Source of the DNA: an uncultured bacterium
Lineage (GTDB): Bacteria; Patescibacteriota; Minisyncoccia; Phycocordibacterales; GWA1-40-21
Direction: 5' to 3'
Length of the DNA: 64,000 bases
Assembly (NCBI GenBank): GCA_963798465.1
Contig: CAWCTC010000001.1
Span: 4,315 to 68,314, forward strand
The position numbers were made by a program, and so were the translations under genes. Shown piece by piece: positions 4,691-56,033 of the stretch. Each line of letters begins with the position of its first letter. The stretch's first letter is position 1. The notes beneath the pieces were generated by a model. It was not told where the DNA came from and ran no database searches. It was given only the letters and a program-made list of their open reading frames with translations.

Positions 4691-4882
4691 ATGCCAGTAC
4701 AATTTGAAGAAGAACAGAATTTCAATGACAGCTATAATAAATCTATTTCAAAATCTAACTCGGGACTGACTGCGTGGATAATAAAAAAAGGCTGGGCAAA
4801 AGATGAGAAAGGCGCGAATTCCATGATGATTATCGTGACAATAATATGCTTTGCACTCGCGATATTCGTTTTCACCAGATAA
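4691..4882 (+). CDS. Small tail-anchored membrane protein, hypothetical
   Basis: 63 aa with a hydrophilic N-terminus and a C-terminal TM helix (MMIIVTIICFALAIFVFT). Preceded by the leader motif. Confidence 0.4.
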   Translation: MPVQFEEEQNFNDSYNKSISKSNSGLTAWIIKKGWAKDEKGANSMMIIVTIICFALAIFVFTR

Positions 4883-5133: not shown

Positions 5134-5164
5134 AAAAGGGCGGCACCGAAGGTGCCGCCCTTTT
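5134..5164. terminator. Bidirectional Rho-independent terminator
   Basis: AAAAGGGCGGCACCGAAGGTGCCGCCCTTTT between convergent genes. Confidence 0.8.
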
Positions 5165-25644: not shown

Positions 25645-26311
25645 TTATTTCTTTTCTTTATTGAAAATATCACCTTTGTAAATCCAGACTTTTGATACCG
25701 ATATCTCCGTATGTCATATGAGCTTTTTCTTGCGCATAATCAATATCTGCTCTGAAAGTCTGAAGCGGAACTCTTCCTTTTTTCATTTCTTCTGATCTTG
25801 CGATTTCTGCACCGCCGAGTCTTCCTCCGCAATAAACTCTGATTCCTTTGACATCGCGATTTGCCATGACTTTTTCAATAGTCTGTTTCATCACTCTTCT
25901 GAAAGGCAATCTTTTTTCCAAACCTTCGGCAATCATTTGGGCAACTATAGCTGCATTTGATTCTGGTGATTTGATTTCTTCAACATCCAATTTGAAATCT
26001 GCTGGAATTGAAAGTTTGTTCTTTGCGGCAAATTTCATTATATCTTTTCTCAAGTTTGACGGAACCTTCTCCGCTTCTGCCGATAACAACTCCGGGTCTT
26101 GAAGTTTTAATGATCAGTCTGAATGTCTTGTCGTTTCTTTCCATTTCAATGGAGCCGACGTATTGGCCTCGCATTTTCTTTTCGAGAAATTCTCTGAGCA
26201 TCATATCGGCTCTCAAAAATCTTTGTAATTTTTGCCAGTAGAAAACCATCGGGATTTCCAATCTCTGATGATTCCCAGTCTATGTGAATATGGATGTACT
26301 GTGTGTGACAT
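25645..26311 (-). CDS. rpsC: 30S ribosomal protein S3 (frame changes)
   Basis: MSHTVHPYSHRLGIIRDWKSRWF..., ...RPGVVIGRSGEG..., ...[57 protein letters not shown]. Confidence 0.8.
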
Positions 26312-26750: not shown

Positions 26751-27092
26751 TTATTTTTTAGCTTCTGTCGATGCTTTTGCTGCTTTTGCTGCTGCTATTT
26801 CTGATTCTTTTGCGGCAATATCAAGTTCTTTCTGCATCTTACCTCCGTGTCTTGTAAACTTCCTTGTAGGAGAAAATTCTCCGAGTCTGTGTCCGACCAT
26901 ATCTTCGGTGACAAGAACTTCCAAATGCGTTCTGCCATTGTGAACTCCGAAAACAAAACCTACCATTTCTGGAGATATCTGGCTTCTTCTTGACCATGTT
27001 TTAATAACACCGGTTTCAATCGGTTTTTTGCCTTCTATTTTTTTTAGAAGTTTTTCATCTACATATGGTCCTTTTTTAAGCGATCTTGCCAT
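26751..27092 (-). CDS. rpsS: 30S ribosomal protein S19 (C-terminal Ala/Lys-rich extension)
   Basis: [21 protein letters not shown]...[55 protein letters not shown]. Confidence 0.92.
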
Positions 27093-27142
27093 AAAATAAT
27101 TTGCATAAATAAAACAAGAAGCTCATAAGAGCTCGAATTAGC

Positions 27143-27314
27143 ATATTAGCAAAATTACGAATAATGTCAAGGAAAATAACGAGCACAGCGACCATATTTT
27201 CCTGACCCCGACACTATTTCAACCGAAATAAAATAATCATTGAAATTGATAAAAGAAAACTCCCATCAAAAACTGCACAGAAATCAACTGATAAAAATAG
27301 TGCAGGGGGGTCAA
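27143..27314 (-). promoter_or_regulatory. Promoter (TTGACA-N16-TAATAT) plus conserved upstream structured module, copy P3, in front of rpsS
   Basis: -35 at 27165-27170 and -10 at 27143-27148 (minus strand). Arms are 27166-27178/27195-27206 and 27203-27219/27296-27314. Confidence 0.55.
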
Positions 27315-27352
27315 CAGCAAAATGGTTTGTTTACGTGGCAAAGAACACTAAA

Positions 27353-27493
27353 ACTAATTTGGAATAGCGATTTGATTATTGTTGTTTTGACTATTTTTAG
27401 AACTTAAACCTCCAGCAATTCCCATAATCAAAAAACTGACGCCGATTATCAGTGCAAATGCTATCAAGAATTTGAAAAAGGTTGAATCGAACA
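27353..27493 (-). CDS. Small membrane protein (46 aa), hypothetical
   Basis: MFDSTFFKFLIAFALIIGVSFLIMGIAGGLSSKNSQNNNNQIAIPN. Below the track cutoff. The ATG abuts the end of the leader element. Confidence 0.35.
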
Positions 27494-27675
27494 TTTACCC
27501 GAGAAAATTTTTGCTGACTTGCCCGAAGAAAATTTGTAATAAAATTTTGACGGGTGAAAATGTGTTGGTGTTATATGACTAAACCATTTCGCAGATTTTT
27601 CTTTGCTAAAAGATTTATCGAATTGGTTAGCATTTTCAACACGTCAACAAAAACTTTAACGGGTTAATTATACCA
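27494..27675 (-). promoter_or_regulatory. TGnTATAAT promoter + structured leader element, copy A
   Basis: Minus strand: TGGTATAATTAACCCGTTAAAGTTTTTGTTGACGTGTTGAAAATG ... CAACACATTTTCAC ... GTCAGCAAAAATTTTCTCGGGTAA-ATG. Homologous to 35863-36016. Confidence 0.5.
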
Positions 27676-27679
27676 TTTT

Positions 27680-29362
27680 TTAAAAATTGTAGAATATATG
27701 GATGAAAGATTTTATTCCACTGGCTGGAATATCAACCAATTTCGACCAAAAGCTCTTTGTCGATGAGGAATAGGAATTATTATCAGGAACTGAAAGACCT
27801 GAGTTCAAAACAGACGCAGTCTGATCAAGATTTTCTGCATTGGAATTTGCTGTCGATGTTGCTGACTCTTCCCTAGTCACGGCAATTTTATTATTCTGGT
27901 TATTTTTCAAAGCAAGAGAATCTTTGTAATTTTTTAGCAATTTTTCCGCATCTTCTACAGAAATATAATTACTTGATGAAGCAACGGCAAGATTACTTTC
28001 TGGCTGTGAGGTTGTTGCATTTTGCTGACCAAAATTATCAGAAGCTACTTCCCCATCAGTAGGATTATCAAGAAATATTCCGCTCGTCGAAGCGTCTATT
28101 CCCAAATCGTCTTTCGCCAAAATAATCTTATTTCCAGCACTTATGATGGTATCTTTCGGAAACAAAAAATCTTTTTGCATTCCCTTAATTTTCCAATTTC
28201 CAACATTTATTTCGGTTACTCCATTATTTTTAATTTCTATATCGCCATTTTCCGTATCTGAAATTGAAATGTCGGGAGAAACTACATTTACCGTAGTTCT
28301 GGAAATAGAATTATACTCTCCGCAAGTTCCGTTCAAAACGACTTGATATTCCCCGGGATATTTGTAGTTATGAGAAACATCCGTGCCTTCAGCATCAAAT
28401 CCATCGCCAAACGACCATGTAAATAAGGGAGAACATTGGCCATTTTGTTCAATATTATACTTGGCATCAAATTCAATCGGCGAGCCGACCGAAGCCAATC
28501 TTTCCCTTCCCGCCGAAATTTCAAAATCATTTTCATCATTATAATTGCTTATGTCTTCCGGATCCGAATGCGAAGAAACATAAACTATTTGTGTAGTTAT
28601 ATTTGTAATTGGCACTTGAGAAGTGGAAGAAGCAACCGATACTGTAGCACTACTACTTGCAGATCCTCCATCACAAGATATTGTAAAAATAGTATTAGCT
28701 GTCAAATTGTCTGAAGAAGCAGAACCAGATGTGCCGACTTGCCATGAAGAAGTGGCACCTTCAGATATTGCGCAAGAATTAACATTGCTTGAATTCCAGG
28801 AAATGGTTGTGGAAGAATTATAAGAAATAGACGAAGGTGCGGCAAAAATTGTGGCAGTTGGAGTTGTGCCTGAAGGAGGTGACGGAAGAGGTGACATTGA
28901 TGTTCCAATATTTATGATTTGGGTTGCTGAAATCCAGGACTGTCCTTGGGCCGAAACAGTTAAAGTAAAAGTCCCGTTTGTAGAATCCGAATAGCAAAAT
29001 CCTTTGTTTGCTTTGCTAGTTGACATTGTCAGCGTACCAGTAGCAGAAATTACAGCCCCGCATTCTCCGCCAATACTCGCGTTGTAAAAAATTCCAGTCG
29101 GAGAGGAAGATATAAATTGTAATTTTGTTGCTGAGCCAACCGCGGTTGAAGTACTGTCCGCATCTTGTGTCTGAACAGTCATAATTTGTGAAATCATACC
29201 AACTCCAATGTTTTGCGGGGCTGAAGTAAAAACTAATTTTGTTATATTACCATCTGCAAAAACTTTCTCCACAGAAATAAAATTAAAAAATATTACTGAT
29301 AAAAAAATCACAAACAAAAAGAACAAATTTTTATTTTTCATAATTATAAAATATATTAACAT
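27680..29362 (-). CDS. Secreted multidomain protein (Ig-like repeats, PKD domain, lamin-tail-like domain)
   Basis: Signal/TM segment KNKNLFFLFVIFLSVIFFNFISVEKVFA. PKD-like FTWSFGDGFDAEGTDVSHNYKYPGEYQVVLNG. LTD-like IEIKNNGVTEINVGNWKIKG...ISAGNKIILAKDD. Confidence 0.7.
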   Translation of the reverse strand: MLIYFIIMKNKNLFFLFVIFLSVIFFNFISVEKVFADGNITKLVFTSAPQNIGVGMISQIMTVQTQDADSTSTAVGSATKLQFISSSPTGIFYNASIGGECGAVISATGTLTMSTSKANKGFCYSDSTNGTFTLTVSAQGQSWISATQIINIGTSMSPLPSPPSGTTPTATIFAAPSSISYNSSTTISWNSSNVNSCAISEGATSSWQVGTSGSASSDNLTANTIFTISCDGGSASSSATVSVASSTSQVPITNITTQIVYVSSHSDPEDISNYNDENDFEISAGRERLASVGSPIEFDAKYNIEQNGQCSPLFTWSFGDGFDAEGTDVSHNYKYPGEYQVVLNGTCGEYNSISRTTVNVVSPDISISDTENGDIEIKNNGVTEINVGNWKIKGMQKDFLFPKDTIISAGNKIILAKDDLGIDASTSGIFLDNPTDGEVASDNFGQQNATTSQPESNLAVASSSNYISVEDAEKLLKNYKDSLALKNNQNNKIAVTREESATSTANSNAENLDQTASVLNSGLSVPDNNSYSSSTKSFWSKLVDIPASGIKSFIHIFYNF

Positions 29363-29403
29363 CCACCATCCCTCTTTCTCTAACTTTTTTGTGGATAACT
29401 TTT

Positions 29404-29422
29404 GCGAAGGTCTGACCTTCGC
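29404..29422 (+). repeat. REP hairpin a (GCGAAGGTCTGACCTTCGC)
   Basis: Palindromic hairpin 7 nt beyond the RAYT stop codon. Confidence 0.75.
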
Positions 29423-29428
29423 AAGAAA

Positions 29429-30121
29429 TTATTTAATATCTATTTTCTCTGGATTAAAATTTAGCCACTCAAATAAATTATTTTTAAAATTTTCTTTCGA
29501 CTCAAAATATTCCGGAAAAACTTTTTTATCTAAAATATCATTTTCTAATCTTTTCAAACCAAAATAATCCAAATAACTTGAATAAGTGTAAACATTTAAA
29601 AAATCCTTAGCTTTTTCAAAATCGCTTATACCAACATCTTTCCAATCAGATTGAATTAATTTTATTGGATTTAAGTGTATATATGAATATAAAAATTTTA
29701 GATAATTGTCATTATTGGCATGCTTTGCTTGAAACCTTCCTTGAAACAAGGCGCCACTCCTTTCATATTTTTTATTAAAATACATTGAGTATGAAGTTAA
29801 TAATTTTTGAAAAAAATTAGATATGCCGCCAGGAATTTTTTCACTAACCAATAAATGGAAGTGGTTCGGCATTAAGCACCAGGCACCAATATTAATCAGA
29901 TCTTTTTCTCTTGTATTTGCTAGGTTTGCGAAGGTCTGGCCTTCGCAGACATCATTTCTCTTCATTTCCCTAACATCTGTAGGCAAACTACTATTGCAAA
30001 TTTTTAACAAAAATAAAAATCGATCATAATCATATTTGTCCATAAAAATATCTCTTTTATCAACTCCCCTATTATAAATATGATAATATTCGCCTTCTGA
30101 AAATTTTATTTTTCTGTTCAT
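29429..30121 (-). CDS. REP-associated tyrosine transposase (RAYT; IS200/Y1 HUH family)
   Basis: 230 aa. EGEYYHIYNRGVDKRDIF, HUH motif CLMPNHFHLLV, catalytic Tyr region LYSYIHLNPIK. Flanked by REP hairpins. Confidence 0.8.
   Translation of the reverse strand: MNRKIKFSEGEYYHIYNRGVDKRDIFMDKYDYDRFLFLLKICNSSLPTDVREMKRNDVCEGQTFANLANTREKDLINIGAWCLMPNHFHLLVSEKIPGGISNFFQKLLTSYSMYFNKKYERSGALFQGRFQAKHANNDNYLKFLYSYIHLNPIKLIQSDWKDVGISDFEKAKDFLNVYTYSSYLDYFGLKRLENDILDKKVFPEYFESKENFKNNLFEWLNFNPEKIDIK
29928..29946 (+). repeat. REP hairpin b, inside the RAYT coding sequence
   Basis: GCGAAGGTCTGGCCTTCGC, translated in-frame as ..VCEGQTFAN.. of the RAYT. Confidence 0.75.
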
Positions 30122-30171
30122 CCAAAAATGATTATAACAACTTTTATATAAATAACAAAAAATAAAAACCC

Positions 30172-30190
30172 GCGAAGGTCTGGCCTTCGC
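30172..30190 (+). repeat. REP hairpin c
   Basis: GCGAAGGTCTGGCCTTCGC, upstream of the RAYT start. Confidence 0.75.
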
Positions 30191-30222
30191 GGTTTTTTAT
30201 TTTGAACAATTTTCGCTAACTT

Positions 30223-30241
30223 GCGAAGGTCTGGCCTTCGC
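30223..30241 (+). repeat. REP hairpin d
   Basis: GCGAAGGTCTGGCCTTCGC, with the same TAACTT...AAAAT flanks as copy a. Confidence 0.75.
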
Positions 30242-30256
30242 AAAATTTTGACAACA

Positions 30257-30286
30257 GAAAAGGCCGGCTCTTTCGAGTCGGCCTTT
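30257..30286 (-). terminator. Terminator of the 1164-aa surface protein gene
   Basis: AAAAGGCCG...CGGCCTTTT hairpin followed by a T-run on the minus strand. Confidence 0.65.
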
Positions 30287-30340
30287 TCTTAACCTATTCT
30301 TCTATGACGAATCCCATAGATAGAATCACAAGTGGTTATA

Positions 30341-33300
30341 TTAGTTGACCATTGATGAATAATTCTGTTGAGCTGTGCTGTATGAAGGTATCAACGTTGC
30401 GTTGATTCCTGTTGCTGCACCCTCTATATCATCCCATTTAACAAAGTTGGCTGAACCAAGCTGTGTTTTAATAGAATCATTACCTGCACCAAGAGTAGCA
30501 CCCGTTATGTTCGCTAGAACATCGAATGTTACTGTTGTATTTGCTGGGATTATGTAACCTGTACCATTAAACGCCAAAGTAGTTGTTCCATTTGACGCTG
30601 ATGATGAAGCTATAACGACACTTGAATTACCATCTACAACAAGGTTTATATTACCTGTTGTTGAAGCTGCGCCTGCAAATGACAAAACTATAGGAAGAGC
30701 AGTCAAATTGACTGAATTTCCAGAAGCTGTAACTGTAATTTGTGCTATCTGCAGATTGGTTCCATCGATGTTACCCTGAGTTGGCTTAGTACTCTGTACA
30801 AGGTTAATTACTGGGTAAGCTGCAACTGGTGTCAATTGTGAGCTTGAAGGTATTGGTGAAGGATAAAGCGTATTCGTTGCATTTCCAGATATGAATTTAA
30901 CTCTGGTCAATTGTAACTGAACTGGAACATCTGAAGGTATTCCGCCATTTGAACTTACATTATTGTAAGTAACAGTGACTGGAATATCTGTACCTGCATT
31001 CGAAAGCGGTATTGAAATACCAACTGGGAATGACAATGTTGTTGTAGCACCGAGAGAAACGGCTTGTGTAACGCCTGCGACAGTGATTGATGTAATCGCT
31101 GGTGAACCTACTGGAGTTGTGTTGAAATCCATTTCAGTTATTGAAGCTGCACCAATTGTAGACTTGAAGTTGAAGGTTGCGATAGCTGAATTTGATGTAC
31201 CTCCGAGAACAAGCTGTGCGCTAGGTGAAGCTGATGTAAGTGTAGGAGCATTTACTATTGATCCTACTCCAACTGTGAACGTCTGACCTACAACTGCTGG
31301 CCTTGAAGCATCTATGTTGCTGATTACACCGTTAGCTGTGACAGCCAAAGATGTTGATGCTGTTGAACCTGTTGTTAGAATTGAAGCACCGCCACCCAAT
31401 TTTCCTGAAACTGATGTAGCCAAAGTAACTGTTGTACCGTTTGCATTAGTTGCACTCTCGGTAATAGTTACATCGTTTCCATAGGTTGTGTTGTAATTCA
31501 ATGCTGTTGTTTTAGCTGTCAAAGTAAGTATTTTACCTGTTGCATTAACTGACGCTGTTACAGGAGAAGTACTTGAACCATTTATTGCAGCTAACATATA
31601 ACCTGCCATAGTAACATCTGTCGTACTAGCAAGGTAGCTACCAACAGTATATGAATTACCACCGACTACAACTGTCGCAGTATTGCCAATCTCAAAGTGA
31701 GATCCTCCGGCAAATGCAACTGTAGCTGTCGCCGCGCTTATTGATGTTGATGAAGTCAAATTTCCAATATCAGCAAAAATATCAACTGTCTGTGAACCAT
31801 TTGCTGGAATTGTTATATTTGTGCTGAAGTTGTTTGAAAGCTGTGGATTAACTTTTGTTGAATTAACTGATGTGTACAAATTTGACAAACCAGTAATTCC
31901 AAGTGAACCTCCGATATTTACTGTCAAACCAGTAACTCTTACCGCTTCTGATGAGTTTGAACTCAAAACGAATGAACCAATTTTGAAGTTAGTTGTATTC
32001 GCTGTAAGTGTTGAACTGTTATATGAAGCGTTCTGAGCGACTGTTAAACCTGCGCCGACTACTGACATAGTAGGACCGGTTACAGGATTTAATGGGAATG
32101 TTGACAAGGTTGAAGAATATGAACCCTGAGCATTGTTTGGATAACTTGACAAAGTTATCACTGTGCTCGTTCCTGCAGGAATATTTACGCCTGCTGGGTT
32201 CTTAAGATCTCCCTTTACATCAAGTGAAACTGTTCCTCCAGCTGGGATTACCAAAGATGATCCTAGGCTGAATAGAGTAGGTGTCGTTGAAGAAACATTC
32301 TGTGAGCTTGAAATTGATGCTCCGTTTGCGTATAAAGTGACATTTGTCAAATCTTGAGTTGCAGAAATATTAAGATAAGAAACCTTAACATCTTCTCCGT
32401 AACCTCTCAATGTGTATTTTGCCAAATCTACGTTTGTTGAACCTACAACTACATTGCCTGAGCTAAGTGTTGCATCTTGTGATGCTGACAAAGATCCTGC
32501 ATTTATGCTGATTGTATTTTCAGACATTGGAATACCTGAAGCTGTGATTCCGACATTGTAGTTTGAATCTACGACTTGGAAATCTGCAGCATTCTGCAAA
32601 TCAACGCTGAATGTTCTGTCTGCACCGTTTACTATATCTGCTCTTACTTCAATTGATCTGTTGCTGTCGATCTTGTAAGGATTTGATGAAAGATCAAAAG
32701 TGATCATTCCATTGTTATCCACACCTGATGCTGTAGCAACTTGAACTCCTGAAATAAACAAACCGATATTTGCAAGTGAATTTGAAGGAACTGAACCGAT
32801 TACCTTGAAAGCTGCGCTCTTAAGATAAACTGCTCTTCCGCCTTCCGAAAGACTTGCTCCCCAGATTGTGTACTGCAATGTTCCGGCATCAACTTGTGTT
32901 GCTGGCTGTACTGCTGTAAGACCAATTGTAGCAAGATCTGTTGCAACAGCTACCGTGAAGGTAGAACCTGTTATTGGATATACTCCTGAACCTGGGATGC
33001 TTGCTGTGACTCCTGTCAAAGCAACATTTACTGTTTGTCCGGCTGCAGCACTTGAAGCTATATCAGCTTTTACTGCAACTGTTACTGATTGCCCTGGAGC
33101 AACAGTGAACAATCCTGTTCCTGAATTAAATGTAATTTGTCCAGATGAAACTGTAGCTGCATCTGTCAATCTTGTTGCACCTTGGAAAAGGTAAACATTC
33201 GCAAGTGAAGTATCTGCTGAAACTCCGCCTCTCTGCAATGTTACGTTTGTAACAACTGCTGGAGCTGATGAAGTGTTCGTGAATGTGTATTCTGCCAAGT

Positions 33301-33835
33301 CTGCTGCTGCTTGACCTTCAATGACTGAACCTGCTGAAGGTGATGTAGCTGCTAAGGCGAAGTTTAAGCTTGAACCTGTTGCTACTACTGTTGTGCCTCC
33401 TGTTGTTGTCGTTGTGACTGAACCTGCTGTTGCATTTACTTTAGCCATTGTTATAGGACCAAAGTATCCGACTGCTGGTGAAATTCCCATAGCTGCCTGA
33501 TATTTTGCTAAAGCTGTTTTTGTCAAATTTCCAAAGTAACCGAATGCTGTGCCGGCTGGCATAACGAGGTCACCTTGAGCGACAAGAATATTTTGCAAAG
33601 CTGTGACATCTGCACCTGAACTTCCAATCGTGAGACTCTTAGTGAAAGTGTATGATGAAGCTGTTGCGACTGGTGCTGCTATTGAAGCCATCAATGATGA
33701 TGCTTGCGTAGCATTGATTATTCCTGCTGCTTGAAGCATAGAAATATCTGCTGACGTCAAAGCAAAGACTGAAGTAGCAACCAATGAAAGTGTCATCACA
33801 ATTGATGCAATGACACCGATTTTATTTTTACTCAT
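30341..33835 (-). CDS. Large wall-associated surface protein (S-layer/adhesin-like) with N-terminal peptidoglycan-binding domain
   Basis: 1164 aa. Signal peptide MSKNKIGVIASIVMTLSLVATSVFA. PG_binding_1-like GSSGADVTALQNILVAQGDL...GYFGNLTKTALAKYQAAMGI. The remaining ~1000 aa are Thr/Ser/Ala/Val/Gly/Asn-rich beta-type sequence with almost no charged residues. The gene has clearly higher GC than its surroundings. Confidence 0.7.
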   Translation of the reverse strand: MSKNKIGVIASIVMTLSLVATSVFALTSADISMLQAAGIINATQASSLMASIAAPVATASSYTFTKSLTIGSSGADVTALQNILVAQGDLVMPAGTAFGYFGNLTKTALAKYQAAMGISPAVGYFGPITMAKVNATAGSVTTTTTGGTTVVATGSSLNFALAATSPSAGSVIEGQAAADLAEYTFTNTSSAPAVVTNVTLQRGGVSADTSLANVYLFQGATRLTDAATVSSGQITFNSGTGLFTVAPGQSVTVAVKADIASSAAAGQTVNVALTGVTASIPGSGVYPITGSTFTVAVATDLATIGLTAVQPATQVDAGTLQYTIWGASLSEGGRAVYLKSAAFKVIGSVPSNSLANIGLFISGVQVATASGVDNNGMITFDLSSNPYKIDSNRSIEVRADIVNGADRTFSVDLQNAADFQVVDSNYNVGITASGIPMSENTISINAGSLSASQDATLSSGNVVVGSTNVDLAKYTLRGYGEDVKVSYLNISATQDLTNVTLYANGASISSSQNVSSTTPTLFSLGSSLVIPAGGTVSLDVKGDLKNPAGVNIPAGTSTVITLSSYPNNAQGSYSSTLSTFPLNPVTGPTMSVVGAGLTVAQNASYNSSTLTANTTNFKIGSFVLSSNSSEAVRVTGLTVNIGGSLGITGLSNLYTSVNSTKVNPQLSNNFSTNITIPANGSQTVDIFADIGNLTSSTSISAATATVAFAGGSHFEIGNTATVVVGGNSYTVGSYLASTTDVTMAGYMLAAINGSSTSPVTASVNATGKILTLTAKTTALNYNTTYGNDVTITESATNANGTTVTLATSVSGKLGGGASILTTGSTASTSLAVTANGVISNIDASRPAVVGQTFTVGVGSIVNAPTLTSASPSAQLVLGGTSNSAIATFNFKSTIGAASITEMDFNTTPVGSPAITSITVAGVTQAVSLGATTTLSFPVGISIPLSNAGTDIPVTVTYNNVSSNGGIPSDVPVQLQLTRVKFISGNATNTLYPSPIPSSSQLTPVAAYPVINLVQSTKPTQGNIDGTNLQIAQITVTASGNSVNLTALPIVLSFAGAASTTGNINLVVDGNSSVVIASSSASNGTTTLAFNGTGYIIPANTTVTFDVLANITGATLGAGNDSIKTQLGSANFVKWDDIEGAATGINATLIPSYSTAQQNYSSMVN

Positions 33836-34390
33836 ATCTAATTTATAATTTTTAATTAAAAGAAAAAACTTTCCTTAACATTAACTAATAAAAAGCTAAT
33901 AACGTTGGAAAGAATCTCTTCGTTTTCTCACCAGTGAACTCTTTCGAGCAAAATAAAATGTTTCGACTAAAAACTTTTTTATTTAAATCTGATGAACATC
34001 TTTATTCCCATTGAAATTTATGAAATGACCTTTCAAAAATTTCGGGATAACACACGGCCGACATATTGCACGTGCGACTTCCTTTCTACTATTCCCTCTT
34101 TTTTATATTCTCAATCACACGATCGTCTTGAGCAGACAAAAGTTTTTTAGTGAATGAGTTCGACACAAAAAAGTTGGATTAGTTGGCGTGAACAAAAACT
34201 ATCTTTCTGTAATTCTGAACTATTCAATTGTCAAAGTTCTCGACCACTGACAAATGGACTTGAGCGAGTCCGAATCAGTTTTTCTGTATTGGTTAATCTT
34301 TTCAGATTAACCGATTAGACCGCCTTTAAAAGCCGTCTAATTTTTGAGAAATACAAAGCGTTTTTAGGCGCAACATACATCTCAACAATC

Positions 34391-34419
34391 ATTATATATC
34401 TTGTTAGAATATCTAGCAA
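34391..34419 (-). promoter_or_regulatory. Candidate strong promoter of the surface protein gene (TTGCTA-N17-TATAAT)
   Basis: -35 at 34414-34419 and -10 at 34391-34396 (minus strand). Implies a ~550-nt 5' UTR. Confidence 0.45.
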
Positions 34420-34623
34420 AATAAATAACTGTGGATAACTAAAAAAAGTTTCTACCTATCGCCATTGACTTAAGACGCTTAAATAAAAACTGCAACTAAT
34501 ATAGCCACAAAAGTATTGTTGCACACTAAAGGTGAAAAGGCAACGAAAAAACTATTGATTATTTACTAAAATTCTTGGTTAATTTTCAATAAAATTGTTT
34601 CGTAAATAAAGGACAAAAAAACT

Positions 34624-34642
34624 GCGAAGGTTTCACCTTCGC
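34624..34642 (+). repeat. REP hairpin e (variant GCGAAGGTTTCACCTTCGC) within a longer terminator hairpin
   Basis: Embedded in AAAGGACAAAAAA...TTTTTTGTCCTTT (34607-34664), just after the wHTH gene stop. Confidence 0.6.
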
Positions 34643-34661
34643 AGTTTTTATTTTTTGTCCT

Positions 34662-35516
34662 TTACTTAGATATAAAATATTTTGACCATCTTCTTTCTCC
34701 CTCCTTTTTTAAGGTCCCTTTTGATACTAAAGATAGGAGTTCTCTCTGTATAGTTTTTTCGCTGCAGTCTTTTATATTTTGAGCAAAATCCTTTATCGTA
34801 AGTTTTATTCCGCTTTTTAACATTGAGAGAATAATATCTTGTCTGTTGTTTTTGTCCTTTATAATTTTTACCGGCGCAGTTGTTTTTATAACAGACATTT
34901 TTTCAACTGGATTATTTTTTGTGTTTTCATCAGCAGATTCTTTCTGTCCTTTATAAGAGACATTTGTGTCTGTTATAGGATTATTTTTAATTAGGTTTGC
35001 ATCTGTTATCTGCACGGAAGGATCCTTGAAAGTCTGTTTTGGAATATATTTATAATCGCCGTCAAACATGTTCGGTTCAAAAGCAATTTTTGCCGATGAA
35101 AAATTTGACGAAGAGGTTATAATAAAATCAGTCAATTTTCTGAGCTCGGCAGTAATTATTTGATGATTCATTTTTGACATCATTTTTGCATTTTCAGCGA
35201 CATCAAAAAGAACTGATAATTCTCCGATAGCCAACAAAAGATTTTTCTGAAATATTTCTTCACCCCAAACTCTATTGGACATGTTCAAAGCATTCTCAAG
35301 CATCTTGTTTGCAAGTGCTCTAGCTCTTTCTCTCATCGGTTCTTTTTCAGACATCAATCCTGTTAAAAGATAAACTGCTTTTACTAGTTTTTCTGTCTTT
35401 TGAAAAACAAACAAACCATATGAGTCACCAGCAAAAAGGACACTAATATCAGCTGTAGCAGCTTTACTGTTTTGATTTTGAGAAGTTATTAAATTATTTT
35501 GATTTTGATTTTCCAT
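34662..35516 (-). CDS. Putative transcriptional regulator with C-terminal winged helix-turn-helix
   Basis: 284 aa. C-terminus LTIKDFAQNIKDCSEKTIQRELLSLVSKGTLKKEGERRWSKYFI (DeoR/HTH_11-like wHTH). The helical N-terminal domain is uncharacterised. Confidence 0.55.
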   Translation of the reverse strand: MENQNQNNLITSQNQNSKAATADISVLFAGDSYGLFVFQKTEKLVKAVYLLTGLMSEKEPMRERARALANKMLENALNMSNRVWGEEIFQKNLLLAIGELSVLFDVAENAKMMSKMNHQIITAELRKLTDFIITSSSNFSSAKIAFEPNMFDGDYKYIPKQTFKDPSVQITDANLIKNNPITDTNVSYKGQKESADENTKNNPVEKMSVIKTTAPVKIIKDKNNRQDIILSMLKSGIKLTIKDFAQNIKDCSEKTIQRELLSLVSKGTLKKEGERRWSKYFISK

Positions 35517-36049: not shown

Positions 36050-36153
36050 CCCCGTAAAGAATTTTATAAGAACAATTGTTGACTAAACTTAAATACTGAA
36101 ATTAACAAAAAATATCATGTCAAAATTAAAACGAAGTGAAAATTCACACAGGG
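36050..36153 (+). promoter_or_regulatory. Start-codon cassette, copy 2
   Basis: CCCCGTAAAGAATTTT ... ATG(36117) ... GAAAATTCACACAGGG. Confidence 0.6.
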
Positions 36154-38423
36154 CAAGAAAAACAAATTCAAAATCAGAATATAAAAACGATGTATTAAGC
36201 AATATAAAAAATGAAACTAAACAAGGAATATTGGCTGTCACTTTTTTAGTTTTGGGGATAATTTTTATTTTAGCTTCAATCAAGACCGGAAATTCTGGAC
36301 ATGAAGTCTATTACGCGGGACCAGTCGGAAAAGGAACTTATGATTTTCTTTCCACTCTTTTTGGTATCGGATATTTTCTTATTCCGCTATTTTTTCTCAT
36401 GTTCAGCATTTCTTTTTTTAAGGCAGAAGAACGAGAATTCAATAAGTTAAAAATCTTCGGCGGAATATTATTTTTTGTCTCCGGTCTTGGAATGATTGAT
36501 CTTGTTTCAAGACAATATTGGACTGCGCAAGGAGGCAAATTTGGCTGGCTCATTTCCACTCCTCTTTCAAGCATGTTCGGCTTCTATGCAAGTGTAATTA
36601 TTTTATTCGCACTTCTTATAATTTCTTGTCTCATTTTATTTGAAACGAGAATTACAGTTGAGTCACTTTTATTCTGGAGAAAAGAAAAAGAAACGAGGAC
36701 GAAGACGAAGATGAGGATATAAAGGTAATTGCCGAAAATTGAAGAGGAGGAAAAAAAGAGAAAGAAATTGAAAAAGAAGAAAAGAAAAGAAAAAGAAACA
36801 ACAAAAGGAGCGTTCATAAAAAAGAATGAGGAAGAGGAATCGGGAATAAAATTTAATCCGAAAATGGTGGGAAATACAAAATATGTTCCTCCCCCACTTT
36901 CTCTGCTTGAAGATGATAAAGGAAGAATGGTTTCCGGTGATATAAAAGCAAATGCAAATATTATAAAAAGAACTTTGCAAAATTTCGGCATTGATGTCGA
37001 AATGGATGAAGTTTCAATCGGACCATCAGTCACAAGATATGCACTCAAGCCAGCCGAGGGAGTGAAAATTTCAGAATTATCGGATTGCAAAATGATCTTT
37101 CACTTGCTCTTGCCGCGCACCCTCTCAGAATTGAAGCTCCGATTCCCGGCAAATCGCTTGTCGGAATAGAAATACCGAACTCCGTAAAATCAACAGTCGG
37201 TCTTGCTGCACTTATTGGTTCCGAAGAATTCCAAAAATCGGACAAGCCGCTTCTTGATAACACTTGGAAAAGGAATTTCCGGAAAATCACATTATGCAAA
37301 CTTGGCAAAAATGCCGCACGTTCTTGTTGCGGGAGCAACTGGTTCAGGAAAATCTGTGACAATTCACGCAATCATCACTTCCCTTCTTTATCGAAATTCG
37401 CCGGAAAATTTGAAATTTATAATGGTTGATCCAAAAAGAGTCGAGCTTACTCTATACAACAAAATTCCCCACCTCCTCACTCCGGTCATCACCGATGCAA
37501 AGAAAACTATTCTTGCTTTGAAATGGGCAACAAAAGAAATGGATCGCAGATATGATGTACTTGAATCCATGCGGTAAAAGATATAGATTCATATCACAAA
37601 AATATTTTTGCTCCAGCACTCAAGAAAAATTGAGGAACTGAAGAAAAAAGGAACTTATAATCCGGAAAAAAATGTTGTGCCGGAACCGATGCCATTATAT
37701 TGTCATAATAATAGACGAGCTCGCCGATATTATGATGGCTTATCCGCGAGAGCTTGAAGCCGGAATCGTTCGTCTTGGCTCAAATGAGCCGAGCTGTCGG
37801 TATCCACTTATACTTTCCACCCAAAGACCTTCCGTGAATGTCATTACCGGTATCATCAAAGGCAAATATTCCAGCAAGAATCGCCTTCAGGTGGTCTCCC
37901 AGATAGATTCAAGAACAATTTTGGATACCACAGGCGCGGAAAAACTTCTCGGTGCTGGAGATATGCTTTATATCGGCGGAGAAATGTCAAAGCCCGTGAG
38001 AATCCAGTCTGCATTCGTTTCTGAAAAAGAAGTTAAAGATGTTGTGAAATATTTGGTTGATTCATACAAGAGATGAGCTTATCGGCGGAGAAATTGATTT
38101 AGCAGAAGTCGCAAAAGGCGGAGATGAAAGCGGAGGCGTCGGAGTATTCAATAGTCTTGAAGATGACGATGGGATGAATTGTACGAGCAAGCAAAAGAAG
38201 AAGTTTTAAAAGCTGGAAAAGCATCAACTTCATATATACAGAGAAAACTTCGAGTCGGATATGCGCGAGCGGCAAGACTTGATTGATTTATTGGAACAGA
38301 AGAGGCGTTATAGGTCCTGGCGACGGTGCAAAAGCGAGAGAAGTCATCGGAAGTGGAGAAAATATTGAAAAATCTAAGATGCAGAAGAAGTGGATGAAAA
38401 TGCACAAAGAAGATCAGATATAG
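36117..38423 (+). CDS. ftsK: DNA translocase FtsK (multiple frame changes / in-frame stops)
   Basis: N-terminal TM domain (36117-36722). Then ...[10 protein letters not shown]...[61 protein letters not shown], Walker [40 protein letters not shown]. The gamma domain reads [26 protein letters not shown]. Read across at least 5 frames or fragments. Confidence 0.85.
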
Positions 38424-38883: not shown

Positions 38884-39979
<1,096 letters not shown>

Positions 39980-40141: not shown

Positions 40142-40159
40142 TTAAAAATTATTATAAAA

Positions 40160-40182
40160 GGGCGGCACCTTCGGTGCCGCCC
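40160..40182. terminator. Bidirectional terminator (GGGCGGCACCTTCGGTGCCGCCC family)
   Basis: Identical 23-nt hairpin at 53972-53994. Near-identical at 5138-5160. Confidence 0.8.
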
Positions 40183-40197
40183 TTTTATAATTTATAT

Positions 40198-53958: not shown

Positions 53959-53971
53959 CAATAAATTAAAA

Positions 53972-53994
53972 GGGCGGCACCTTCGGTGCCGCCC
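53972..53994. terminator. Bidirectional terminator (GGGCGGCACCTTCGGTGCCGCCC)
   Basis: Identical to 40160-40182. Confidence 0.8.
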
Positions 53995-54007
53995 TTTTTG
54001 TATTTGT

Positions 54008-56014: not shown

Positions 56015-56033
56015 GCGAAGGCCAGACCTTCGC
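56015..56033 (-). repeat. REP hairpin f (inverted orientation, GCGAAGGCCAGACCTTCGC)
   Basis: Exact reverse complement of the REP at 30172-30190, about 26 kb from the RAYT. Confidence 0.7.

Follow-up and report, generated by a model that had tools for sequence, protein, structure and literature searches.

The window analyzed here, a 64,000-nt stretch from an uncultured bacterium of the Patescibacteria (contig CAWCTC010000001.1, positions 4,315 to 68,314 of the forward strand), carries a gene for a Y1/HUH enzyme that is accompanied by copies of a short GC-rich hairpin upstream of its start codon, at its stop codon, and, in frame, inside its own coding sequence. The locus is probably a REPtron-like unit, in which a vertically inherited, single-copy Y1 enzyme of the REP-associated tyrosine transposase (RAYT)/TnpA_REP type is combined with its cognate short perfect hairpin (repetitive extragenic palindrome, REP), the internal copy included. 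Comparison of homologous sequences revealed the same three-position layout (5', in-frame internal, stop) across a large clade of Patescibacteria, with a hairpin that differed by lineage. As the layout recurs with lineage-specific hairpins in relatives, it is an old, co-evolving feature and not a one-off accident. The gene, its motifs, and the hairpin copies are located as follows (window coordinates).

29429–30121, minus strand: Y1/HUH gene (RAYT-like, class-2 TnpA_Y1), intact open reading frame (ORF), 230 aa.
29855–29866, minus strand: NHFH motif; the HUH residues H87-F-H89 are encoded at 29855–29863.
29666–29689, minus strand: YSYIHLNP motif; the catalytic-type Tyr147 of YIHLNP is encoded at 29681–29683.
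29903–29986, minus strand: loop 1 (residues 46–73), 28 aa specific to the family, inserted after helix A and ahead of the pre-HUH strand, with the internal hairpin inside.
29928–29946 (extended stem 29927–29947), minus strand as part of the gene: internal copy, exact, single-stranded DNA (ssDNA) hairpin of −9.1 kcal/mol.
29404–29422: 3' copy, 7 nt beyond the stop codon, one mismatch, −10.6 kcal/mol.
30172–30190 (30170–30192 with flanks): proximal 5' copy, 51 nt upstream of the ATG, exact, −13.7 kcal/mol.
30223–30241 (extended stem 30221–30243): distal 5' copy, exact, −10.3 kcal/mol, loop oriented as in the other gene-proximal copies.
34624–34642: dispersed member with the 8-bp stem of the 29404 copy and loop TTC, −16.6 kcal/mol.
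56015–56033: dispersed intergenic copy, exact, loop inverted relative to the gene-proximal copies.

An earlier note, made from the letters of the window alone, had placed the 19-nt palindrome at 29404, 29928, 30172, 30223, and 34624 and, inverted, at 56015, and all six positions were recovered. Exact matches to GCGAAGGTCTGGCCTTCGC on the plus strand were found at 29928–29946, 30172–30190, and 30223–30241, and a fourth exact copy with inverted loop at 56015–56033; the 29404 copy is a one-mismatch variant and the 34624 member a loop variant. In 100 shuffles of the window the chance expectation for palindrome matches was 0.00. Folding predicted a stable ssDNA hairpin for every copy (−8 to −17 kcal/mol, z-scores of −4 to −9). 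Of the 24 perfect GC-rich hairpins in the whole window, six belong to this family, and four of these lie at the Y1 gene. The bases flanking the window hairpins are T...A/A. In the 29404 copy, a G-to-A change in the loop adds a base pair and thereby yields a 10-bp stem (29402–29424). The 34624 member forms part of a terminator-like hairpin of 15 bp with A/T flanks (34617–34649) between a gene for a 284-aa protein and one for a 1164-aa PG_binding protein. The Logan assembly of run ERR11594402, a separate assembly with possibly shared source data, was identical over 2,693 nt including the four gene-proximal hairpins.

The Y1/HUH hallmarks already noted in ORF 29429–30121 were borne out by profile and fold searches. 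The protein passed the cut-off of Pfam PF01797 (Y1_Tnp) with 38.0 bits (cut-off 23), and H87, H89, Y147, N151, and P152 were invariant in an alignment of 40 homologues. The motif set comprises NHFH, FQ, YIHLNP, and an invariant SS in the tail of the ~230-aa protein; YIHLNP represents the Y---NP tyrosine motif of class 2 (Quentin et al. 2018). A sequence search of the PDB gave marginal matches only (4er8 at E = 0.2), so that a fold search was needed. With an AlphaFold2 model based on the alignment of 40 homologues (predicted local distance difference test score, pLDDT, 84), Foldseek retrieved 4er8_A as best PDB match (E = 4.9e-6), the complex of E. coli TnpA_REP with a REP hairpin (PMC3479197); further fold matches were to the TnpA proteins of ISDra2, IS608, and IS200, PDB 2xo6 and 2vjv among them. 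Motifs and model together support the assignment to a Y1/HUH enzyme of the RAYT/TnpA_REP kind that looks catalytically intact and domesticated. No other Y1 gene or partial copy was found within the 64-kb window.

More than 7,800 homologues exist, mostly of about 215–235 aa and labelled Paceibacterota or Patescibacteria. Altogether 160 homologous loci were analyzed by script and six closer ones were added singly, all from metagenome-assembled genomes (MAGs) and metagenome contigs; P0002 (75% identity) was left out, as no contig was recorded for it, and the 123 complete genes from the 160 loci were counted. Hairpins were called at a perfect stem of ≥6 bp, which undercounts imperfect copies, and ranges are given because two hairpin classifications yielded slightly differing counts. 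The same perfect GC-rich hairpin was present both upstream of the ATG and at the stop codon in 73–74 of the 123 genes (~60%), with the 5' copy typically ending 10–35 nt before the ATG and the 3' copy lying between −35 and +30 nt around the stop. In 25–27 genes (~20%) the hairpin also occurred 60–78 nt before the CLMPNHFH codons, and these pre-HUH hairpins were always in one frame (xAA-GGx...xCC-TTx). The internal hairpin was associated with the flanking pair (22/27 genes with it versus 51/96 without; Fisher p = 0.008). Copies of the flanking hairpin elsewhere in the coding sequence were found in nine of the 123 genes, seven of them ~270–285 nt into the gene. Among individual loci, L026, L030, L066, L105, L151, and L155 have the 3' hairpin 20–70 nt inside the C-terminal coding region, so that two to three hairpin copies are translated. 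L008 is an exception to the three-copy layout, as its internal hairpin (1021–1047, 12-bp stem, FQEGRTFLE) has no matching flanking copies.

The hairpins were lineage-specific (e.g. TCCAAGGTCGAACCTTGGA, CAGCAAGGTCGGACCTTGCTG, CGCGAAGGAGGGTCCTTCGCG, ACTGAGCAAGCTCTGGGCTTGCTCAGT), varying among loci with identical copies inside most of them. The 87 hairpin families distinguished have stems of 6–19 bp and loops of 3 nt (57 families) or 5 nt (23 families), and only the loop-proximal part of the stem is conserved (C-N-A-[GA]-G-N, with G at −2 in 92% and A at −4 in 80% of the families). The relative loop orientation of the three copies varied (+++, −+−, −++, ++−). Two to three anciently diverged Y1 paralogues were observed in single MAGs (L003/L057, L018/L054, and the two genes of L066 with L072); where they had recognizable hairpins (L003/L057, two genes of L066), each had a different private one, which parallels the multiple RAYT/REPIN pairs of Pseudomonas genomes.

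The closest loci compared (61–69% identity) are syntenic with the window and share the order large PG_binding surface protein, Y1 gene, PKD/LTD protein, and then rpsS-rplV-rpsC. This conserved synteny indicates that the Y1 gene was inherited vertically at one locus. In L161, L163, L164, L165, and the window (26751–35516), the Y1 gene with the PG_binding (1164 aa) and PKD/LTD (560 aa) genes lies directly upstream of rpsS-rplV-rpsC, and in L164 rplB is located immediately upstream of the Y1 gene; with rplB and rpsS on either side, the block is a conserved variable island that interrupts the S10 ribosomal-protein cluster. The hairpins of these orthologues compare as follows.

Window: hairpin GCGAAGG/CCTTCGC, internal peptide CEGQTFA.
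L161: hairpin GCGGAGGC/GCCTCCGC, internal peptide CGGFASA.
L162: stem of the window type with the loop flipped in frame, internal peptide EGLAFA.
L163: own hairpin type; the exact hairpin of the window is also present 1.2 kb upstream.
L164: 45-nt inverted doublet inside the coding sequence with a 20-bp stem, REPIN-like (QGLTFVNNKGQTLV).
L165: hairpin CGGAGGCTTAACCTCCG in three copies, with an inverted doublet further upstream.
L166: hairpin TGCCAAGGTGGAACCTTGGCA, three copies.

The hairpin thus switches between genomes and matches inside most loci, indicating that the copies evolve in concert. The internal copy tracked the flanking ones via compensatory stem changes and loop flips; as it follows the hairpin of its genome in most orthologues, its behavior is that of a repeat-family member and not that of mere coding sequence. 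REPIN-like inverted doublets were found in L161, L162, L164, L165, L032, and L047. Beside the hairpin copies, the window contains a terminator-like hairpin of the gene for the 1164-aa protein at 30260–30291 (aaaaggccggctctttcgagtcggccttttct). L163 has a similar one at 4726–4759 (AGAAAAGGCCGGCCCGAAAGGGCCGGCCTTTTCT), also after a PG_binding gene, and this hairpin directly adjoins the copy of the window's exact REP.

The coding strand of the internal copy (codons tGC GAA GGC CAG ACC TTC GCa) is translated in frame to C59-E-G-Q-T-F-A65. The earlier note had assigned this peptide to a variable loop before the HUH motif, in agreement with the structural model, in which residues 52–66, covering the hairpin-encoded peptide, have pLDDT values <50 and lie between helix A (29–41) and the strand 76–83. 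In silico removal of residues 46–73 rendered the Pfam match contiguous over profile positions 6–119 and raised it from 38.0 to 43.1 bits; likewise, the match to NCBIfam NF047646 became contiguous over 6–133 and increased from 44.6 to 49.4 bits, still below the cut-off of 80. Profile matches and model thus identify the whole of loop 1 as a predicted surface loop inserted, in deep time, relative to canonical Y1 enzymes. Alignment did not bear out the suggestion that CEGQTFA itself might be an insertion relative to homologues, since the median loop-1 length was 28 aa with or without the hairpin.

The counterparts of CEGQTFA in homologues are of the same length (SEGQTFG, SEGLAFA, CGGFASA, QGLTFV, RGPSSG, QGRTLT), and G61 is nearly invariant. 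Palindromes encode such peptides by pairing GAA with TTC, GGx with xCC, TGC with GCA, and CGA with TCG, and the peptides are related because each homologue carries its own hairpin at the same codons. The earlier proposal that the same peptide in genomes lacking this REP would expose the palindrome as coincidental is therefore misleading, as the peptide co-varies with the hairpin of each genome. Codon usage pointed to a constraint on the nucleotides themselves. In 25 pooled genes, the GC content at third codon positions was 0.58 in hairpin codons versus 0.34 in the rest (Fisher p = 1.7e-9, Wilcoxon p = 3.8e-5), and in the window gene it was 0.71 versus 0.21; the only CAG and the only ACC codon of this gene lie in the hairpin, as does one of its two TTC codons (against 18 TTT).

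In an approximate neighbor-joining tree of the homologues, hairpin-bearing genes were scattered over one large clade, and between them stood genes in which the hairpin has decayed and a relic peptide (EGRSF, QGKTL, or QGLPL) persists; L058 appears half-matching or half converted. A second clade (members L105, L109, L136, L149, L151, L152, and L155) has an in-frame insertion of 5–14 aa just after the HUH strand, in the β3–αC loop (median loop length 22 versus 11 aa); the hairpin peculiar to this clade lies within the insertion, and decay follows the same pattern there. The simplest reading of these sequence patterns is that a REP or REPIN entered a surface loop in frame on two independent, ancient occasions, and that conversion kept the internal copies in some lineages while others lost them.

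The best σ70-like promoter of the region was predicted on the minus strand at 30131–30158 (TTGTTA-16-(TG)TATAAT, 10 of 12 matches plus TG extension), between the proximal 5' hairpin and the ATG. The −10 box of this putative promoter ends 9 nt before the ATG, so that the leader would be very short or absent if the promoter is used. In most homologues a TATAAT-like box likewise lies 5–12 nt before the ATG with the hairpin abutting it. As the promoter-like site is located downstream of the 5' hairpin, the 5' copy is probably outside the mRNA, and an RNA-level role for all three copies was rejected on these grounds. The proximal 5' hairpin, with T-runs on both strands, looks like a bidirectional terminator, and from its position the 5' copy probably fills the −35 zone and shields the gene from transcription arriving from upstream. 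The possibility that the 3' arm of the hairpin serves as a canonical −35 box was discarded, as the spacings do not fit.

In the REPtron-like unit favored here, loop 1 would go back to a REP or REPIN that was inserted in frame long ago. The enzyme would bind the hairpin in ssDNA via the conserved upper stem A[GA]G/C[CT]T, and either its cleave-and-rejoin activity or template switching between hairpins would keep replacing the copies near the gene, so that repeated replacement holds the internal copy identical to the flanking ones. For E. coli TnpA_REP, hairpin binding, cleavage of REP-containing ssDNA, and strand transfer have been demonstrated (PMC3479197). In many lineages the hairpin inside the gene has decayed and its peptide motif is still present, and loss is also seen in lineages whose flanking copies and intact gene persist. 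We therefore consider the internal copy most likely a tolerated, dispensable, but 'live' REP copy and no required part of the protein.

Several points weigh against this interpretation. The NCBIfam REP_Tyr_transpos model (NF047646) was matched with 44.6 bits, under its equivalog cut-off of 80, and no conserved GT[AG]G foot or other flanking guide or base was found among 219 hairpins. Dispersed copies are rare, with 10 in 779 kb of homologue flanks (~0.13 per 10 kb) and only two of the six copies in the window lying away from the gene. About one third of the homologous genes have no recognizable hairpins and are still intact, so that the protein may serve some purpose apart from the hairpins. 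Concerted evolution is not absolute, as L162 has an internal hairpin unlike its upstream doublet (5' flank compared). The subclass that the protein resembles in its motifs, 2.1, is reported without REPs near the gene (PMC6006769), and hairpin binding, cleavage, and enzyme-driven conversion are inferred by analogy with TnpA_REP. Hence, from the REP/RAYT arrangement proposed in the earlier note, the REPtron-like flanking hairpins hold, whereas the missing foot, the low dispersal in the stretches scanned, and the profile score depart from it.

Other explanations were weighed against the same data. There is next to no probability that the palindrome inside the gene arose by coincidence of coding, or that a REP was recently inserted in this genome alone. 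The similar peptides of the homologues, (Q/E)G-x-(T/S/P/A)-(F/L), at first sight look like conservation at the protein level, but they are translations of each genome's own hairpin; together with zero expected chance matches to the 19-mer and the anomalous usage of the hairpin codons, this rules out coincidence. A recent insertion is ruled out by the equal length of loop 1 in genes with and without the hairpin. It is also improbable that the gene and its two flanking hairpins form an autonomous insertion sequence (IS) of the IS200/IS605 type, with the hairpins as left and right ends and the internal copy as an alternative end. The tight placement of hairpins at both gene boundaries in ~60% of the loci, the few solo copies, the IS200-like upstream terminator hairpin, and the fold related to IS608 and ISDra2 TnpA would fit such an element. 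Against it stand the synteny next to rpsS that is kept among orthologues at 61–69% identity, the single copy in the window, and the age of paralogues within a genome, each with its own hairpin. Moreover, the tyrosine motif is of class 2 (Y---NP) and not the Y---Q of IS200, no tnpB is present, and the end hairpins are identical and free in orientation, whereas IS608-type chemistry needs ends on the same strand.

A selected cis-regulatory site that limits expression of the gene, acting on DNA or mRNA, is an unlikely function of the internal hairpin, if a less remote one than those just discussed. The enzyme could bind the hairpin extruded from the non-template strand, translation could stall at a GC-rich hairpin of rare codons, or the enzyme could cleave its own gene. 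Such a role would account for the identity of the internal copy with the flanking copies despite strong codon bias and for the constancy of its site throughout a large clade. The 5' copy adjoins the −10 box in most loci, which places it in the −35 zone, and self-limitation is known from TnpA_REP, whose C-terminal tail is auto-inhibitory (PMC3479197). On the other hand, the internal hairpin has decayed next to perfect flanks and an intact gene in, e.g., L002, L005, L114, and L058, and hence is dispensable, and the free loop orientation speaks against recognition of the loop itself, be it on one strand or in RNA. A self-referential circuit, in which the enzyme reads the hairpin in its own coding DNA or mRNA to throttle itself, is compatible with the constant position of the internal copy, with its concerted evolution, and with a 5' copy that adjoins the promoter, and is nevertheless a long shot. 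In its radical version the hairpin-encoded peptide would help to read the hairpin; by analogy, the peptide at the αA–β2 junction occupies the position of the hairpin-contacting R46 of E. coli TnpA_REP. If this were true, substrate and specificity loop would share nucleotides and would have to co-evolve.

At the gene, 2–6 hairpin copies lie within ~1.2 kb, and the dispersed copies sit at the ends of unrelated neighboring genes. Copies located ~650 nt from the gene were considered as a second conserved cassette, which was rejected because they bracket unrelated genes (for a MazF-like protein, LigA, membrane proteins, and others). A second, unrelated hairpin family occurs in the window at 5134–5164, 40151–40191, and 53968–53998 (AAAAGGGCGGCACC-(TTCG/GAA)-GGTGCCGCCCTTTT); its three dispersed copies have stems of 14–19 bp, flanks of A/T-runs, and the look of bidirectional terminators, with no associated Y1 gene in the window. 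Elsewhere in the window, recA (39061–39979) is split into at least 3–4 overlapping ORF pieces, and rpsC/S3 (25670–26261) and ftsK (36117–38076) are fragmented, which suggests indel errors in the source assembly, pseudogenes being less likely. The region of the Y1 gene was identical in the separate Logan assembly.

REPtrons and RAYTs are well described (PDB 4ER8; PMC3479197; PMC6006769 and PMC5581495, which cite Nunvar 2010, Ton-Hoang 2012, and Bertels & Rainey 2011), an example being E. coli yafM/TnpA_REP with its flanking bacterial interspersed mosaic elements. The Patescibacteria loci share with them the Y1/HUH fold, the Y---NP motif, low copy number (one Y1 gene in the window), vertical inheritance, a cognate flanking palindrome, divergent paralogues that each have their own hairpin, and, in several loci, REPIN-like inverted doublets. 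They differ in the lack of a 5' GT[AG]G foot, in short, perfect, unbulged stems, in the low density of dispersed copies (~0.13 per 10 kb of flank), and in the protein, which with 230 aa, a 28-aa loop insertion, and a long C-terminal tail remains below the NCBIfam cut-off, as well as in their Patescibacteria host. The resemblance to IS200/IS605 elements (IS608, ISDra2, IS200) comprises the fold, the logic of a hairpin in ssDNA, hairpins by both gene ends, and the IS200-like upstream terminator hairpin. Unlike those elements, the locus has Y---NP instead of Y---Q, is syntenic and not multicopy, has identical end hairpins of free orientation, lacks tnpB, and encodes a longer protein; subclass 1.1 is defined by Y---Q, a core-only protein of ~150 aa, and near-identical multiple copies, as opposed to the 230 aa and single copy in the window.

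The presumption that a REP inside its own enzyme gene is unprecedented has to be corrected, since in subclass 2.4 REPs lie in frame inside tnpA_REP, between HuH and Y in the β3–αC loop (Quentin, Siguier, Chandler, Fichant 2018, PMC6006769, Fig. S7B, S10). Here as there, a cognate REP resides in a peripheral loop with the frame intact, and the insertion site of subclass 2.4 is that of the second clade described above. In contrast, the copy in the window precedes HUH (αA–β2 junction), no 'double foot' or GTAG is present, and the protein has FQ and YIHLNP in place of the subclass 2.4 motifs (NH[IFV]H/WQ/YIxNNP). Judged from published motifs, the protein resembles subclass 2.1 (Bertels Group 1, TIRYTs), with NH[YF]H, FQ, Y[IV]HLNP, the SS tail, and a length of ~230–238 aa. 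TIRYTs have the terminal inverted repeats GGGG[AT][CG]A[CG] (PMC6006769; PMC5581495), whereas lineage-specific hairpins flank and invade the gene here.

Literature searches found no description of such a system in Patescibacteria. The clade-wide three-copy layout with its lineage-specific sequences offers a natural experiment in the concerted evolution of enzyme and substrate; dozens of matched protein/hairpin pairs could be used for mapping the determinants of hairpin recognition, and the copies inside coding sequences could serve to test whether HUH enzymes prefer to act beside their own gene. The practical value is modest and lies in cognate pairs for the engineering of HUH tags or ssDNA tools. 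Compared with the known systems, the host group, the pre-HUH insertion site, the 2.1-like motif signature, the GTAG-less perfect short hairpins, and the low dispersal appear to be new, and so does the clade-wide inheritance at a fixed position with concerted evolution and a decay series. REP/RAYT-type biology would thereby be extended to Patescibacteria (candidate phyla radiation) with genomes of <1 Mb, and to a Y1 subclass that is matched by its motifs to one reported as REP-less.

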